From a virus (taxonomy: Duplodnaviria > Caudoviricetes): 59,783 bases of DNA. The DNA is taken from the IMG/VR virus record IMGVR_UViG_3300027902_000011, positions 1-59,783 of that record; one strand, 5' to 3'. The notes beneath the pieces were generated by a model. It was not told where the DNA came from. It did not search any database and saw nothing but the letters and a program-made list of their open reading frames with translations. Shown piece after piece: positions 842 to 39,838 of this stretch (within the stretch, counting starts at the first letter, position 1; every line of letters begins with the position of its first letter). The translations under genes were made by a program, and so were the position numbers.

Positions 842-905
842 ATAAATAACTTGCCGGTCGCGGATTAGGGTCCCACCGGCACTAACCCCCTGGAGGGCCA
901 GCATG
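842..905 (+). promoter_or_regulatory. Late promoter plus conserved two-hairpin endonuclease leader, copy 1
   Basis: ATAAATA..GCCGGT CGC GGA TTAGGG TCC C ACCGGC ACTAACCCCCTGGAGGGCCAGC ATG. Confidence 0.75.
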
Positions 906-1514
906 AACTATTTAACCATCTATGAGACCATTCTTCATCGGGGACTTACCCGTACCAAGAAGAAGGGCGACTTCCTACACAGACACCGGATTGATCCTGG
1001 CCATGAGGGTGGTAAGTATGTCGAAGAAAATATCTCTAACCTCACCAGAAAAGAACATTGCCTGGTGCATAAGATCCGATATAAGTTGTATGGAAAGGCT
1101 TGTGACTTGTGGGCTGCTCAACGACTTGGCTGCCGTTTGACCCAGGAGGAACTACATCAGCTTCAAATTGCTAATGGTAAGATGACCAAGGGTCGGCACT
1201 GGAAGTTGTCTGAAGAGACTAAGAAAAAAATGTCTGCTTCTAAAAAAGGTAAGCGCTTCTCTGCAGAACACCGTGCTAAGTTATCAGAAGCAGCTCGTAA
1301 CCGTTCACCTGAAGCCAGAGCCAATATGGCACGCCGGAATCCATCTCCAGAAACGCGAGCCAAGATGTCAGTATCTCAAAAGAACCGTGCTAAGTTTTCT
1401 AGTACTACGCGTATGAGGATGGCAGAAGCACAGCGAAATAGATGGGCCTATTTGAAGTCGCTGAAAACAGAACGGTCCAGTTTCTTAGGTACGCCTTCAT
1501 CGTCTATTCTCTGA
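903..1514 (+). CDS. HNH-like homing endonuclease with NUMOD3 repeats
   Basis: HRHRIDPGHEGG..ENISNLT..EH motif and SEETKKKMS repeats; AT-rich; convergent overlap with gp41. Confidence 0.8.
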   Translation: MNYLTIYETILHRGLTRTKKKGDFLHRHRIDPGHEGGKYVEENISNLTRKEHCLVHKIRYKLYGKACDLWAAQRLGCRLTQEELHQLQIANGKMTKGRHWKLSEETKKKMSASKKGKRFSAEHRAKLSEAARNRSPEARANMARRNPSPETRAKMSVSQKNRAKFSSTTRMRMAEAQRNRWAYLKSLKTERSSFLGTPSSSIL

Positions 1515-2863
1515 CCGATAGTCGTTCGATCCATTACTGGAATGTCATCCATTAGTCCATGTTGAGCAGCTGGCTCGGCGTTGTAGAGCCTCATCTTTGA
1601 GCGGTCGATGCCGATGATGAAACGTCTATTTTTAGTAGGATCCCCATACCGGTTTTTTGAAGTCTGCTTCACCAGTATCTGGTCGAGCTTGTCGAGCTCC
1701 TCAGAGCCGACCAGGATGACCATGAAGTCGGCGGTCATCGGCAGGCCGAACGAGTCTGAGGTGTGCTGGAGGTCTGGATCGGAGTCGACGAACCCGGTGC
1801 GGTTCAGCTGGGTCGCCGACCAGACGGCGACGTTGTACTCGACGGCCAGGCCGCGGAGCTCCTCGGCGACCGCCTTGACGTAGGTGTAGGAGTTGACGCC
1901 GGGAGACAGCTTGTAGCGCGTGCTCAGGCACAGGTTGATGTAGTCGACGTAGATGACGTCCGGGACGAAGTTCTTCTTGAGGCGCAGCTCGTTGAGGAGG
2001 TGACGGAAGTGACCGGCGCCCGCCTGGACGGTCGGGTACTCCTTGATGATCAGTCGGCCGAGCGTCTTCTCGCGCAGTCGGTCCATCTTCTTGTCGTAGG
2101 CTTCCCTGGGCAGGTCGCAGAGGACGCTGATCGGCACGTCTAGGAGGTTAGCGTCGATGCGCTCGGCGATCTTCTCCTCTGCCATCTCCATCGTGACGTA
2201 GAGGACGTTCTTCGCATCCATGAGGTTGTGCGCTGCGAAGTGACACATCGCGAGCGTCTTGCCGACGCCGGTACCGGCCGACAGGATGTTCAGCGTCTTC
2301 GGCTCGACTCCTCCCCCCGTCACCCTGTTGAAGTACTCTAGGTCGAAGCCGACCTTGCGCTCCTTCTTGTGATAGAACTCGAAGCGGGCGCCCGAGTCCT
2401 CCATGAAGTCGTGTCCGATGTGGTCGTTGAAGCCGACCGCGAGAGCGTCTGATAGGAGAGAGGGTATAGCGCTTCGGGGGTGCTTCTTGTCTTTATCCTC
2501 AAGGATAGAGACAGACTGACGGATGGCGTTGTAGATCGCTCTGTCTTGACAGAATTTTTCGGTTTCATTCTTCAGCCACTCCTTCTTGACTGGTTCGGCC
2601 GTGGGCACGAACAGCTCGTCGACGAGTTTAGACACCTCCCCGACGAACTCGTCAGAGCCGATGCTCGTCGCATTGGCGAGGTCGATCTGTAGCGCTTCGA
2701 GTGTCGGGGTCGCGTTGTATCGCGTGAGGTACGCATGGACGAGGTTGAAGACGACCCGGTCGTGCTGGTCCAGGAAGTACTCCGGCGCCAGGTACGGCAT
2801 GACCATCCTAGATGCCTCATCGTCTCGGAGGACTGCGCCCAGGAGGAGGTGTTCAAATCGCAT
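1448..2863 (-). CDS. gp41: T4 gp41-like replicative DNA helicase (DnaB family)
   Basis: Walker A AGTGVGKT, VDYINL, SATQLNR, SFGLPMTADF, KNRYGD motifs. Confidence 0.95.
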   Translation of the reverse strand: MRFEHLLLGAVLRDDEASRMVMPYLAPEYFLDQHDRVVFNLVHAYLTRYNATPTLEALQIDLANATSIGSDEFVGEVSKLVDELFVPTAEPVKKEWLKNETEKFCQDRAIYNAIRQSVSILEDKDKKHPRSAIPSLLSDALAVGFNDHIGHDFMEDSGARFEFYHKKERKVGFDLEYFNRVTGGGVEPKTLNILSAGTGVGKTLAMCHFAAHNLMDAKNVLYVTMEMAEEKIAERIDANLLDVPISVLCDLPREAYDKKMDRLREKTLGRLIIKEYPTVQAGAGHFRHLLNELRLKKNFVPDVIYVDYINLCLSTRYKLSPGVNSYTYVKAVAEELRGLAVEYNVAVWSATQLNRTGFVDSDPDLQHTSDSFGLPMTADFMVILVGSEELDKLDQILVKQTSKNRYGDPTKNRRFIIGIDRSKMRLYNAEPAAQHGLMDDIPVMDRTTIGQRIDDEGVPKKLDRSVFSDFK

Positions 2864-3069
2864 CAGCAGCCGGCACTTTCTTCGTCTTCGGTTCCTGTCG
2901 CTGTCTCTTCAAGAATAGCGCTGGCGGAGTCGATCAGCACCTTCTTGAGGCCCACCTCAGCGAATATCCTCATCGCTCGCTGAGACATGTCGAACCTGAT
3001 CGTGCAGGACCCGTCTGGGTTGTCGATGATCTCGGCGACGGTTATCTCGCCCTTGATCTCTTCGGTCAT
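2863..3069 (-). CDS. Hypothetical protein
   Basis: ORF translationally coupled between uvsX and gp41. Confidence 0.6.
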   Translation of the reverse strand: MTEEIKGEITVAEIIDNPDGSCTIRFDMSQRAMRIFAEVGLKKVLIDSASAILEETATGTEDEESAGC

Positions 3070-38873: not shown

Positions 38874-38911
38874 TGACTATTTATGTGCCGGCACACGGAC
38901 AGCAGCACCTC

Positions 38912-39751
38912 TTAGGTGAAGAACTCCTCGAGCGTTCTTTCTGGAACTGCTTGAGAAGCATTCCAGCATTTTTTCCATGCGATCTCAGCAGCCACCTTGG
39001 TCTGGCCTCCCCACTTACCGATGCCCTCCTTAGTGATCTTGTCGTACAGCTTCACGAACTGGGGAAACTTGGCCTGCAGCGCCCTCATGGACTCGTTGTG
39101 CGTGTCGATAGTCCGAGACAGGGTCATGCCCCCGACAGACTGCTGCGTCGGCATCGGCCTCACGCGGTAGCGTAGGGAGATGCGGTTCTGGTACCCCATC
39201 GACAACAGCTGGAGGGTTATGTTGAAGTCTTCGGCGTGGGGAACGTCGTGCCAGCTCAACTTGTCGTGAGGGAACGTCTTCGCGTTGTAGAAGTGCGCGC
39301 CGTTCTGACGAAAGTTCTGGTGGAACATCTTCTCCAGGGGAGGGTTCCAGCATATCTCGAGACCACAGGTGACGAAGTCGTCCAGCCACTCCGACATCAG
39401 GTCGAACGCGGCGTCGTAGTCTGGGTCCTTGAACTTTGTGTTCCAGAGGGGAAACTTGTCTTTTTCTGTTGCTAATCTCGTATATGCAAAGTTATACAGA
39501 TCGTCGTCTAAAACACCATACTTGGTGACCTTATCCTTGATGGCCTGTTTCGCGATCCATTCACGAACATAAGAGATACCAGTACCTTGCACTGGGCATA
39601 ACAGGGTCGGATAACCCTTCTTGCCATGCATCTCAGCGTCCTGCTCGTCGACGACTAATACGGTTTTCTTCTTCCACTTCTCGGGAAGATTTTCAAACGT
39701 ATATTGGCGGGATCTGCGGTATGTGGGAATGTAAAGTTTCTCAAGGCTCAT
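38912..39751 (-). CDS. Putative DNA base glycosyltransferase (TAGT-like / hmC glycosyltransferase-like)
   Basis: YIPTYRR, REWI, LDDD, AEDF motifs; lies in the base-modification cluster. Confidence 0.7.
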   Translation of the reverse strand: MSLEKLYIPTYRRSRQYTFENLPEKWKKKTVLVVDEQDAEMHGKKGYPTLLCPVQGTGISYVREWIAKQAIKDKVTKYGVLDDDLYNFAYTRLATEKDKFPLWNTKFKDPDYDAAFDLMSEWLDDFVTCGLEICWNPPLEKMFHQNFRQNGAHFYNAKTFPHDKLSWHDVPHAEDFNITLQLLSMGYQNRISLRYRVRPMPTQQSVGGMTLSRTIDTHNESMRALQAKFPQFVKLYDKITKEGIGKWGGQTKVAAEIAWKKCWNASQAVPERTLEEFFT

Positions 39752-39767
39752 CAGTCATTCTTTCCAT

Positions 39768-39838
39768 GATAAATAATCTGCCGATCGCGGACGGACATCC
39801 CATCGGCACTAGACCTGAACAGAGGACCAGCCACCATG
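39768..39838 (+). promoter_or_regulatory. Late promoter plus conserved endonuclease leader, copy 6
   Basis: ATAAATAATCT GCCGAT CGC GGA CGGACA TCC C ATCGGC ACTAGACCTGAACAGAGGACCAGCCACC ATG. Confidence 0.75.

Follow-up and report, generated by a model that had tools for sequence, protein, structure and literature searches.

What does a short leader shared by six homing endonuclease genes of one viral genome do, and which of its two strands carries the function? The initial annotation of the window (the whole stretch of DNA analysed here) described the leader as a conserved, covarying and portable two-hairpin module heading unrelated endonuclease families. That description was supported. The annotation also took the leader for a cis-regulatory RNA on the sense strand, a claim that comparison of the two strands did not support.

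Six copies of a portable cassette

The pattern ATAAATA-N4-GCCGRTCRC, with up to two mismatches, matched the window six times against 0.05 expected, and none of 100 shuffles reached six; a two-arm cassette pattern also gave six matches (0.00 expected). A covariance model found exactly six copies in the 59,783-base record, with no further matches. The number of copies first annotated was thus confirmed, and all six sites stand, with the correction that copy 3 occupies 18867-18941 (-), 18877 being near its ATG end.

Each cassette is 75-80 bp long, is set between two facing late-promoter boxes and lies directly 5' of a homing-endonuclease gene, three endonuclease families being represented (Table 1). 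Cassette 3 and its minus-strand gene sit within a tRNA cluster. The sense late box ends 4 nt before hairpin 1 in all six window copies, with all hairpin arms downstream, as had been noted when the cassette was first set apart from the classic T4 mask.

The Rfam search suggested by the initial annotation (release 15, gathering thresholds) gave 21 matches over the whole window, all of them tRNA or RNase P and none on a cassette. At E up to 1, the region 31480-31600 (cassette 5) had no match on either strand. The cassette was found in none of five cultured T4-like phages when these were searched with the model that recovers every copy in the record of the window itself, and a literature search found no paper describing it.

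Table 1. Coordinates of the cassettes, endonuclease genes, predicted antisense RNAs and regA homologue
Feature	Position (strand)	Elements and remarks
Cassette 1	841..916 (+)	Sense late box GATAAATA 841-848; hairpin 1 853-880; ACUA 881-884; hairpin 2 variable part 885-898; CAGC 899-902; ATG 903; opposite-strand box 909-916, TATTTAAC = GTTAAATA on minus strand
Cassette 2	7982..8060 (+)	Sense box TATAAATA 7982-7989; hairpin 1 7994-8022; UCUA 8023-8026; hairpin 2 8027-8040; CAGC 8041-8044; ATG 8045; opposite-strand box 8053-8060
Cassette 3	18867..18941 (-)	Sense box TATAAATA 18934-18941; hairpin 1 18902-18929; UCUA 18898-18901; hairpin 2 18884-18897; CAGC 18880-18883; ATG 18879; opposite-strand box 18867-18874 (plus strand), perfect TATAAATA
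Cassette 4	26710..26787 (+)	Sense box CATAAATA 26710-26717; hairpin 1 26722-26749; ACUA 26750-26753; hairpin 2 26754-26767; CAGC 26768-26771; ATG 26772; opposite-strand box 26780-26787
Cassette 5	31508..31583 (+)	Sense box TATAAATA 31508-31515; hairpin 1 31520-31547; UCUA 31548-31551; hairpin 2 31552-31566; CAGC 31567-31570; ATG 31571; opposite-strand box 31576-31583
Cassette 6	39768..39847 (+)	Sense box GATAAATA 39768-39775; hairpin 1 39780-39807 (GCCGAU/AUCGGC); ACUA 39808-39811; hairpin 2 39812-39827; CAGC 39828-39831; ATG 39836; opposite-strand box 39840-39847 (minus strand), perfect TATAAATA
Endonuclease gene 1	903..1514 (+)	203 aa; HNH-type, PHROG 655, E 1.5e-15; NUMOD3
Endonuclease gene 2	8045..8659 (+)	204 aa; GIY-YIG-like, PHROG 314, E 1.5e-14; NUMOD3
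Endonuclease gene 3	18370..18879 (-)	169 aa; HNH_3 Pfam, E 3.3e-13; PHROG 12324, E 4.2e-36
Endonuclease gene 4 remnant	26772..27044 (+)	90 aa
Endonuclease gene 5	31571..32260 (+)	229 aa; GIY-YIG-like, PHROG 314, E 3.4e-07
Endonuclease gene 6	39836..40393 (+)	185 aa; HNH-type, PHROG 655, E 8.1e-29
Predicted antisense RNA 1	841..904 (-)	About 64 nt
Predicted antisense RNA 2	7982..8048 (-)	About 67 nt
Predicted antisense RNA 3	18879..18941 (+)	About 63 nt; if unterminated, would run antisense to tRNA genes
Predicted antisense RNA 4	26710..26775 (-)	About 66 nt
Predicted antisense RNA 5	31508..31571 (-)	About 64 nt if terminated; on read-through, would become 5'UTR of regA
Predicted antisense RNA 6	39768..39835 (-)	About 68 nt if terminated; on read-through, would reach glycosyltransferase gene
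regA homologue	31087..31500 (-)	PF01818, E 2.6e-36

Pfam and PHROGs bear out the HNH family, named at first annotation, for copies 1, 3 and 6. The GIY-YIG assignment of copies 2, 4 and 5 rests on PHROG 314 ('homing endonuclease'), on NUMOD3 and on a homologue whose Pfam GIY-YIG match is sub-threshold (16.7 bits against a cut-off of 22.6). Gene 4 is a remnant: its N-terminal 84 residues alone align to gene 5, with 61% identity, and no continuation was found in another reading frame.

Identity among the window cassettes is 66-86%, compared with 45-54% in the 60 nt that precede them. How the cassettes are related does not match the endonuclease families, and their homology ends at both boxes. Gene 5 and cassette 5 are inserted between gene 62 and regA, a junction that is intact in 71 of 80 relatives and holds the cassette in none of the 80. 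The cassette is portable: it heads unrelated endonuclease families and moves in with the gene as one unit.

A late-promoter motif on the opposite strand

In all six window copies CAGC is followed after 4-8 nt by TATTTAY, which is the late-box motif on the opposite strand; in one of them that box reads TTAAATA. The motif was absent from the pattern given at first annotation. Across 60 copies the two boxes mirror each other. TAAATA was found on the sense strand in 54, of which 35 have 5 nt between it and hairpin 1, and on the opposite strand in 52, of which 34 have 5 nt between it and GCUG; perfect TATAAATA boxes numbered 19 sense versus 20 opposite-strand. TATTTA is absent in 8/60 copies, six of which have TACTTA at the same place. 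Four copies (L157, L162, L164 and L170) have a degenerate sense box, yet carry a perfect opposite-strand TATAAATA and a U run after hairpin 1'.

TATTTAY often codes for a tag preceding the true catalytic motif. It is found in three reading frames, and its distance from CAGC holds even in copies with the ATG within hairpin 2 (L058, L087, L125, L134). Among homologues, it was present in 13/13 cassette-bearing versus 2/28 cassette-less sequences, and among the endonuclease ORFs of the window in 6/6 cassette-bearing versus 0/5 cassette-less ones. Judged by these distributions, TATTTAY is a nucleotide-level, frame-independent feature, and by motif match it is a putative outward late promoter on the opposite strand. 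The commonest late-box arrangement in the window phage is ATAAATA-N4-ATG, which occurs seven times. The predicted +1 of the outward RNA, the 5th nt after the box, was calibrated on the window phage's own late boxes.

The strand on which the fold is conserved

The window and viral contigs together gave 69 distinct copies, with 1,019 pair cells, over which pairing in the two hairpins was counted. Standard pairs filled 99.7% of cells on the antisense strand versus 87.0% on the sense strand, and G.U cells numbered 130 versus 1. On the antisense strand, alignment A4 has G.U at 7 of its 15 pair positions and A5 at 5 of 15. A separate regex-based count of 60 copies gave 140 A.C versus 2 G.U cells on the sense strand, 60 of the 140 being forced by the search pattern itself; the sense-strand A+C content is 56%. 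The antisense alignments were 99.7% and 99.8% paired, a level reached by none of 500 shuffles, and contained 86 and 92 cells with double-sided changes versus 24.9 and 21.2 in the shuffles. Slid-partner controls on the same alignments were 19-54% paired.

RNAalifold, applied to the same 38 sequences in both orientations, gave 15 pairs and -12.26 kcal/mol for antisense versus 7 pairs and -5.81 for sense. Fold energies of the window copies were -19.6 to -24.9 antisense versus -15.2 to -19.7 sense, the antisense value being lower in 6/6. Single-sequence z-scores of the sense leaders ranged from -1.62 to +0.68 and none was significant, so that support for the fold comes from comparison, not energy. 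As read from this comparison, the fold is selected on the strand opposite the endonuclease gene.

The compensatory changes first reported for the inner stem (GGA/UCC, GGU/ACC, GAG/CUC) and the G-C to A-U change in the outer stem of copy 6 were both seen again, and the outer stem has 14 pairing-preserving sequence types among relatives. The site annotated as a CRC/Y internal loop is better described as one R-Y pair flanked by two bulged C residues. This pair is G-C in four window copies, A-U in one and A.C in one; the counts in 43 unique leaders are 31, 8 and 4, respectively. The second stem, annotated as weak, is real: it is closed by CUA...CAG, the conserved flanks CUA and CAGC pairing with each other, and it covaries in relatives, but it is strong on the antisense strand only. 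On the sense strand A.C cells break the helix of hairpin 2, whose loop and 3' arm hold the Shine-Dalgarno sequence (SD), and single folds show that helix weakly or inconsistently. One outer-stem pair on the sense strand is most often A.C (22/43 leaders), and the closing pair is A.C without exception. Since the strands are complementary, the sense mRNA also forms weaker versions of the same hairpins, which may also have a role.

These counts bear directly on the claim that the sense strand is a protein operator, ligand sensor or ribozyme. In that reading, the functional RNA would be the 5'UTR of the endonuclease's late mRNA in its folded form, with a stabiliser hairpin at the 5' terminus and a second hairpin containing the SD, and it would be bound by a protein such as RegA or the endonuclease itself, or would sense a ligand. 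Its layout is suitable, in that hairpin 1 begins 4-5 nt after the sense box, so that the mRNA would start with it, the SD falls within hairpin 2 and RegA is encoded by the phage; translational control by RNA structure is, moreover, established for T-even endonuclease genes (PMC2988022). Nevertheless, 13% of sense pair cells are A.C and almost none G.U, the opposite of the outcome expected from selection on the sense fold, and the consensus sense fold is weak. The frame-independent TATTTAY, which gives the module an opposite-strand late box of its own, is left unexplained. No Rfam riboswitch or ribozyme was matched, even at E up to 1 over cassette 5, and nothing in the two simple hairpins points to a ligand pocket or ribozyme core. 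We regard a sense-strand regulator as quite improbable.

A role at the DNA level was also weighed, in which the cassette is a recombination point for swapping endonuclease 5' ends and has no RNA role beyond its promoters. The relationships that cross endonuclease families and the end of homology at both boxes would suit such a role, and PeSL promoter-terminator motifs are reported to mediate such shuffling in T4-like phages (PMC4122927). Like PeSL as described there, the cassette is a short portable module of promoter and stem-loop that is repeated in a T4-like genome and marks modular exchange. PeSLs have early promoters and flank hyperplastic-region ORFs; unlike them, the cassette has two late boxes, is linked to endonucleases and shows strand-specific covariation. 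A recombination point needs identity, however, and the stems instead show at least 14 types with pairing kept, while pairing that is strand-specific through G.U is unreadable by double-stranded DNA. A purely DNA-level function is thus very hard to credit.

Predicted outward RNAs and neighbouring genes

At about an even level of confidence, we favor a portable cassette expressed in both directions, in which an outward RNA of 63-68 nt regulates endonuclease translation as a cis-antisense RNA. In uncultured T4-like phages, such cassettes would travel along with free-standing homing endonuclease genes. On the gene strand, the cassette would supply a late box, a 5'UTR beginning at the base of hairpin 1, an SD held by hairpin 2, the start codon and a tag of a few N-terminal residues (M-x-I-Y or M-Y-L). 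The codons of this tag, TATTTAY, would act on the opposite strand as the second late box, firing outward. The predicted RNA consists of 5'-(0-4 nt)-GCUG, hairpin 2', UAGA, hairpin 1' and a U-rich tract, the anti-SD lying in or beside the loop of hairpin 2' and the U-rich tract being complementary to the sense box. This RNA, whose length of 63-68 nt supposes an end at hairpin 1', would be the molecule whose fold is conserved by selection. By position, it covers the entire endonuclease 5'UTR to the start codon in 6/6 copies; fully complementary to that 5'UTR, it would pair with the mRNA and limit ribosome access. Both RNAs would come from late promoters simultaneously, and the benefit of such a circuit is not obvious.

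The 3' ends of the predicted RNAs were placed at the U-rich tract opposite the sense box. The stem base of hairpin 1' is G+C-rich (GCCGGU/AYCGGC), and the tail after it has a mean of 6.0 U per 10 nt (range 2-9). The sense box, together with the AT-rich stretch found downstream of the box in late promoters (PMC2988020), largely determines this tail, which is therefore not independent evidence of a terminator. Its U count is no higher with a co-directional upstream neighbour (5.8) than with a divergent one (6.7), and a consensus terminator scan did not call hairpin 1'. Judging from the gene arrangement, hairpin 1' cannot be a complete terminator, because transcripts for regA and for the glycosyltransferase gene must run through cassettes 5 and 6. 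Termination there would be partial, with read-through feeding these close divergent genes.

The same two genes suggest that the opposite-strand box and folded RNA could serve the neighbouring phage gene rather than the endonuclease, so that a gene separated from its operon by the insertion would again be transcribed late. The hairpins would then be a stabilising 5' structure or a processing site, and any effect on the endonuclease incidental. Neither regA, which starts 8 nt beyond the sense box of cassette 5, nor the glycosyltransferase gene, which starts at 39751, 17 nt beyond cassette 6, has room for its own promoter, and the position of regA directly after gene 62 in most relatives implies that the insertion broke that linkage. 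Within the family, the upstream neighbour is divergent in 26 of 60 copies, and 8 of these 26 neighbours have a possible start no more than 40 nt away. Hairpin 2' would begin a few nt from the outward +1, and a T4 review reports downstream-gene promoters within endonuclease coding regions (PMC2988022). Other copies, however, do not fit: the upstream neighbour is co-directional with the endonuclease gene in 15/60 and could not be served by the outward RNA, the box of copy 3 points into antisense of tRNA genes, and copies 1 and 4 have a separate outward late box just outside the cassette (at 838, and at 26699 on the minus strand). A mere promoter, in addition, needs no two covarying hairpins exactly over the endonuclease SD. 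Service to the neighbour as the main function is therefore considered unlikely.

Relation to known control systems

The antisense regulator that we favor has partial counterparts. Ribosome-binding-site masks with a late promoter in the hairpin are described in T-even phages and Aeh1 for I-TevI, I-TevII, I-TevIII, segB and mobE (PMC2988022). As in these, the cassette combines RNA structure around a homing-endonuclease SD with a late promoter, an arrangement suited to tight control of a selfish nuclease. The T-even late box lies inside the hairpin and late transcripts are without the 5' arm, whereas the cassette box lies upstream of both hairpins. Because the window also holds the classic mask twice, at 22525-22586(-) and 24786-24832(-), mask and cassette are two different solutions within a single genome.

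An antisense RNA opposite a homing endonuclease gene of a T4-like phage, as predicted here, is described for cyanophage S-PM2. CfrI, about 225 nt long, is co-expressed with the endonuclease gene and links it to psbA, its function being given as unknown (PMC2984593). Covariance model R1 found no match in the S-PM2 record at E up to 1.

Closer parallels come from insertion sequences, as presented in PMC4513863. The left end of IS200 has the antisense sRNA art200, an SD-sequestering stem-loop and a terminator hairpin. As in IS200, the nuclease or transposase gene of a mobile element is headed by two inverted repeats, an outer hairpin, which is the terminator in IS200 and a putative partial one in the cassette, and a stem-loop with the SD, with the difference that the IS200 terminator hairpin is upstream of the tnpA start and hairpin 1 of the cassette is inside the 5'UTR. 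Unlike IS200, the cassette has T4-type late boxes mirroring each other as promoters, belongs to a homing endonuclease gene in a lytic phage, passes between unrelated endonuclease families and also brings an N-terminal tag. Control by art200 is known, whereas its counterpart in the cassette is predicted from sequence.

In IS10, RNA-IN and RNA-OUT come from facing promoters a few tens of bp apart, as the two RNAs of the cassette would, and RNA-OUT is an antisense RNA that folds into a stable stem-loop, matches the nuclease mRNA at its 5' end by complementarity and blocks 30S binding (same source). RNA-OUT has one hairpin and a 35 bp overlap; the cassette has two hairpins and an overlap of 52-60 nt. 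In contrast to IS10, copy-number sensing in trans by the cassette RNA is unlikely, because the loops and inner stems differ among the six copies. The logic shared with IS10, as proposed, would be that of a mobile element restraining itself: endonuclease output would be held down late in infection, much as RNA-OUT acts on IS10 and art200 on the IS200 transposase.

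Six cassettes and the genes they head

The window is a 59,783-base fragment from an IMG/VR virus record, about 33% complete, of an uncultured T4-like phage. It encodes a gp41-like helicase, UvsX, gp43 polymerase, gp44/62 clamp loader, RegA, gp46, UvsW and gp23, and its polymerase is about 42-43% identical to those of its nearest cultured relatives, which are cyanophages. The six cassettes claimed in the initial annotation were all found in the sequence. A pattern of the 5' half matched 6 sites against 0.05 expected, a two-arm pattern matched 6 against 0.00 expected, and a covariance model, the check proposed there, recovered the same six copies and no others. 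All terminate at the ATG of a homing-endonuclease-like ORF. These genes had been assigned to HNH and GIY-YIG families. The first assignment holds (PHROG 655 and PHROG 12324/HNH_3), while calling PHROG 314 GIY-YIG has weak support, the Pfam GIY-YIG match being sub-threshold and occurring in a homologue; a search of solved structures gave no relevant match for this type. Endonuclease gene 4 is a remnant, yet its cassette is intact, so a cassette can persist after its gene has decayed.

Features of the window (cassettes are listed by start position)
Feature	Positions	Strand	Details
Cassette 1	841	+	endonuclease of HNH type, PHROG 655
Cassette 2	7982	+	endonuclease GIY-YIG-like with NUMOD3, PHROG 314
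Cassette 3	18941	-	endonuclease HNH_3, PHROG 12324 / Pfam HNH_3
Cassette 4	26710	+	
Endonuclease gene 4	26772-27044	+	90-codon remnant of PHROG 314 type; residues 1-84 alone align to paralogue
Cassette 5	31508	+	endonuclease GIY-YIG-like with NUMOD3, PHROG 314
Cassette 6	39768	+	endonuclease of HNH type, PHROG 655
Classic T4 mask	22525-22586	-	gene 21937-22530; -23.8 kcal/mol, z -5.9
Classic T4 mask	24786-24832	-	gene 24184-24792; -22.8 kcal/mol, z -7.2
tRNA cluster	17690-25214	-	20 tRNA genes, all on the same strand; interrupted by three or more endonuclease-like ORFs (18370-18879, 21937-22530, 24184-24792)
Bacterial type-A RNase P RNA	22970-23249	-	inside tRNA cluster; 170.9 bits (gathering threshold 100)
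Hairpin	30515-30538		perfect 10-bp G+C-rich stem, T-rich tails on both strands; likely bidirectional terminator
C-5 cytosine methylase	37082-38284	-	near cassette 6
200-aa ORF	38271-38873		between cytosine-modification genes; no Pfam match
TET-associated glycosyltransferase family	38912-39751	-	near cassette 6
dCMP deaminase-like	40610-41368	-	near cassette 6
Thymidylate-synthase-like	41154-41933	-	near cassette 6
Full ClpX homologue	54838-56094	-	zinc finger, AAA_2 and ClpB D2-small domains; adjoins gp23 region

The cassette family in viral contigs

Relatives were sampled from viral contigs by three routes: a scan with the 5' half alone fixed (29 stretches), a two-arm scan (at least 117 stretches) and a leader-blind, protein-anchored search with endonuclease 5 (75 loci). 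Among the 29 stretches, a matching 3' arm was present at L014, L025, L030, L018 and L021 (L-numbers denote loci on other viral contigs), and L015 carries a long-insert variant. A structure-based pattern run over all sampled loci yielded 63 unique instances, 60 of which were used; L037, L063 and L086 were excluded because they are without the promoter, SD and ORF context. Covariance searches gave 45, 52 and 7 matches.

The cassette starts with the NATAAATA box, followed after 4-5 nt by hairpin 1, which is built of a 6-bp outer stem, a bulged C, a single R-Y pair, a second bulged C, and an inner stem of 3-6 bp with its loop. WCUA leads to hairpin 2, whose stem is variable and whose loop and 3' arm contain the SD; CAGC, about 5 nt and TATTTAY complete the element. 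The outer stem is not fixed in sequence: the 60 copies hold 14 types, including GCCGGU, GCCGAU, GUAGUU, GCCAAU, GCUAGU, GUCAGU and GAGGGU, each with a matching 3' arm. Hairpin 2 is closed by CUA pairing with CAG, and L176 shows a compensatory change at this closure (UUA...CAA).

Lower-scoring relatives (L037/L139, L063, L085, L086 and L088; 28-49 bits) lie on G+C-richer viral contigs and are without both late boxes. L088 has TATAAT immediately ahead of hairpin 1, the 295-aa ORF that follows L085 does not resemble an endonuclease, and at L063 and L037 the loops are purine-rich (GGAGGA) with no ORF close by. The fold may serve another purpose in these relatives.

The conserved fold fits the antisense strand

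Read on the sense strand, that of the endonuclease gene, non-Watson-Crick cells are nearly all A.C and hardly ever G.U. Across 43 unique leaders, one outer-stem pair was A.C in 22, A-U in 13 and G-C in 8, and the middle pair was G-C in 31, A-U in 8 and A.C in 4, with G.U in neither. All helices of the 60 copies gave 998 Watson-Crick, 140 A.C and 2 G.U cells, 60 of the 140 A.C cells being imposed by the search pattern at the closing pair. The 56% A+C content of the sense strand cannot explain the excess.

For the same 38 sequences, in an alignment that omitted five copies with a long hairpin 2, RNAalifold returned 7 pairs at -5.81 kcal/mol on the sense strand and 15 pairs at -12.26 kcal/mol on the antisense strand. 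Model-based antisense alignments had standard pairs in 99.7% and 99.8% of cells, a level reached by none of 500 shuffles; being fitted to the antisense model, they carry a general bias toward pairing. Both-side changes numbered 86 and 92 cells compared with about 25 and 21 in shuffles, and sliding the partners reduced pairing to 19-54%. The strand asymmetry is untouched by the fitting because both strands were scored on the same columns. When identical columns were mirrored (69 distinct sequences, 1,019 cells), standard pairs made up 87.0% of cells on the sense strand and 99.7% on the antisense strand, with 1 and 130 G.U cells, respectively. Single antisense positions alternate between G-C, G.U and A-U (for example, GU 18, GC 16, AU 6, UA 2), as is usual when RNA helices evolve.

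The window copies fold at -19.6 to -24.9 kcal/mol as antisense and -15.2 to -19.7 kcal/mol as sense, antisense being lower in all six. Hairpin 2 is weak on the sense strand in these copies, and its antisense counterpart, hairpin 2', is a 7-9-bp helix. Single-sequence fold z-scores of the sense leaders were not significant. Taken together, the pairing data argue strongly that selection acts on the antisense fold.

The initial annotation had read the copies as a sense-strand leader RNA acting as protein operator, ligand sensor or ribozyme. Its portable RNA module is retained; the strand is not, as the predicted RNA lies on the opposite one. With A.C rather than G.U on the sense strand, and the fold selected on the antisense strand, a sense-strand leader is quite unlikely. 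A tRNA-like or RNase P-substrate role was rejected, there being no NCCA tail, no T-loop-like loop and a fold on the other strand. A YUNR loop motif, judged by eye, was inconsistent.

A late promoter box on the opposite strand

Read on the opposite strand, TATTTAY is (R)TAAATA, a late box turned towards the sense one, and its spacing is a mirror image. In sense, TAAATA-N5-hairpin 1 occurs in 35 of the 60 copies and N4 in 12; on the opposite side, CAGC-N5-TATTTA occurs in 34 of 60 (spacer range 4-17), and TATTTA is absent in 8, six of which have TACTTA. Box quality is equal on both strands (TAAATA, 54 sense and 52 opposite; TATAAATA, 19 and 20). The motif is found in three reading frames (T-ATT-TAT, TAT-TTA and C-TAT-TTA-TA), keeps its distance from CAGC even where the ATG lies inside hairpin 2 (L058, L087, L125 and L134), and in many proteins encodes a short tag (MSIY..., MTSTNIY..., MYL...) before the true catalytic motif. 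Among leader-blind homologues of endonuclease 5, TATTTA stood at the 5' end of all 13 loci that carry the cassette and of 2 of the 28 that do not; within the window TATTTAY marked all six cassette genes and none of the five other endonuclease-like ORFs. For these reasons TATTTAY is a nucleotide-level feature.

The commonest late-box arrangement in the window, ATAAATA-N4-ATG, occurs seven times (13949(+), 23668(-), 35922(+), 38884(-), 47532(-), 56532(-) and 56574(+)) and was used to calibrate +1; cassette-less endonuclease genes at 35933 and 56585 have this arrangement. The seven boxes suggest that many late mRNAs of the phage may be leaderless. The calibration agrees with PMC2988020, which places the TATA box roughly one helical turn ahead of the start. 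On this basis transcription of the sense RNA is predicted to begin with the first G of hairpin 1, and that of the outward RNA 0-4 nt ahead of GCUG.

At L157, L162, L164 and L170 the sense box is degenerate, yet the outward TATAAATA is perfect and a U-run lies past hairpin 1', the antisense counterpart of hairpin 1. Cassettes 1 and 4 each have a minus-strand ATAAATA directly beyond the sense box, forming back-to-back divergent late boxes at 838(-) with 842(+) and 26699(-) with 26711(+). Firing of the outward box of the cassette is plausible from the motif. A short ORF from the antisense AUG of the CATG palindrome was rejected: it is unconserved, with CAGCAAATG in many copies, and stops after 7 codons in copy 5.

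Portability and insertion

Window cassettes are 66-86% identical pairwise, and the 60 nt upstream sit at the alignment baseline (45-54%), so homology begins at the box. Relationships among them cut across endonuclease families: the HNH_3 cassette is nearest to a GIY-like one (84%), HNH copy 1 has its nearest match in GIY-like copy 4 (83%), and between the two PHROG 655 cassettes identity is 72%. Across the sampled viral contigs the cassette heads several GIY-YIG-like subtypes, SegE-type and HNH genes (two or three types) and a DUF723/DUF2726 protein. Gene 62 abuts regA in 71 of 80 relatives, and none of the 80 has the cassette; in the window the 62-regA gap is 687 nt, filled by cassette 5 and endonuclease 5. 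The relatives without insertion indicate that cassette and gene arrive together. A module serving recombination as DNA only would be another reading of such mobility, and an extremely improbable one.

Control designs in one genome

The window has at least 11 endonuclease-like ORFs, six of them with the cassette. Two others have classic T4 masks, in which an inverted repeat surrounds the late box and pairs with the SD; both lie in the tRNA cluster and their proteins begin MHYVIYKTT. The remaining three have a late box nearly touching the ATG or a short plain leader. The contrast originally drawn with the classic T4 hairpin was correct, and both designs are present in the window.

The RNase P RNA in this cluster covers the full length of the model in just 280 nt, with all core motifs aligned; P3 is shortened, and a 43-position stretch is cut to 1 nt. 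No phage-encoded RNase P RNA was found described in the literature searched.

Comparison with known systems

The Rfam check suggested in the initial annotation gave no match, either at gathering thresholds or with E values allowed up to 1. The literature searched gave no account of such a cassette. The covariance model R1 recovered all six copies in the window's record as a positive control and gave no match in Aeromonas phage 25, T4, Aeh1, MED4-213 or S-PM2. BLAST of a typical cassette against cultured-phage records returned one irrelevant 32-nt match, and a related-locus search with the copy 6 HNH protein gave no confirmed relative. In cellular genomes, the GCCGRT-type stem pattern hit at least 120 loci; among the matches listed, none passed the structural filter. 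The only cultured-phage relatives of endonuclease 5 found by tblastn were in two Vibrio phages (33% identity), and no cassette lay upstream at the one locus examined (H14). At L228 (Vibrio phage VB_VaC_SRILMA, record 120112-121086) endonuclease 5 relatives lie inside an ORF annotated 'head-tail adaptor', which suggests a fused or mis-annotated endonuclease-like segment.

[quoted passage not shown] IS200 and the RNA-IN/RNA-OUT pair of IS10 resemble the cassette in logic, IS200 more closely. Passages of a T4 review list hairpin masks, autorepression and embedded promoters for downstream genes, and note that seg43(25) of Aeromonas phage 25 is preceded by an unexplained stable hairpin (PMC2988022). 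CfrI of S-PM2 is the one antisense RNA reported opposite a T4-like endonuclease gene (PMC2984593); it is unrelated to the cassette by the R1 search. For a portable module that joins a promoter to a stem-loop, the closest precedent is the PeSL motif (PMC4122927). The cassette would be a case of antisense control of a mobile-element nuclease, with an RNA predicted from sequence.

A predicted outward RNA and what it may do

The outward RNA is proposed to be a cis-antisense regulator limiting endonuclease translation, because the fold, outward box, SD-region complementarity and mobile-element context match the logic of IS10 and, even more, of IS200. We regard this proposal as evenly balanced between right and wrong. 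Ending in the U-rich complement of the sense box, the RNA would be 63-68 nt long and span the whole endonuclease 5'UTR. We infer that transcription stops at hairpin 1' and that the product represses the endonuclease. The U-rich tail is mostly a consequence of the sense box, hairpin 1' was not called in a consensus terminator scan, and terminator strength compared by neighbour orientation showed no supporting difference.

The main rival is that the outward RNA serves the neighbouring phage gene only. regA starts 8 nt past the cassette 5 box, with just an SD in between, and the glycosyltransferase gene starts 17 nt past cassette 6. Both must be transcribed through the cassette, so hairpin 1' can be at most a partial terminator there, which speaks against a simply terminated sRNA. 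Of the upstream neighbours of the 60 copies, 26 are divergent and 15 co-directional, 16 are of unclear orientation and 3 could not be assessed; 8 of the divergent ones could begin within 40 nt. Against the rival, an outward RNA is of no use to the 15 co-directional neighbours, the outward box of copy 3 points into the antisense of tRNA genes, and at copies 1 and 4 a separate outward late box lies right beside the cassette. Service to the neighbour alone is unlikely.

Cis-antisense control could also be part of a wider scheme: a widespread undescribed class of phage small RNA genes, acting as antisense antidotes with RNA-based homing immunity and outward promoter payback. Each free-standing homing endonuclease would have its own late antisense RNA with a private loop code, resident antisense RNAs would silence incoming endonucleases sharing the cassette variant in mixed infections, and the outward promoter would repay the host phage by re-driving the gene displaced by insertion. 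As a joint reading this is very unlikely; if true, endonuclease spread in T4-like phages would be partly decided by RNA-RNA specificity. Around cassette 6 lies a possible cytosine-modification gene set (37082-41933, minus strand).

Significance

In T4-like phages the chief selfish elements are homing endonuclease genes, which by the textbook account are controlled by hairpin masks and autorepression. The cassette would be a third, modular design, resembling insertion-sequence antisense control rather than the T4 hairpin. It is common to at least three endonuclease families in the window and to five or six types in the sampled viral contigs. Short, sharply bounded and abundant, it could become an entry in libraries of RNA families, and in metagenomic phage contigs it would flag free-standing endonuclease genes together with their true starts. 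A single stretch of DNA would specify two promoters, two RNAs and the opening codons of a protein. A real antisense RNA would allow a direct test of how selfish nucleases keep down the burden they place on the phage.
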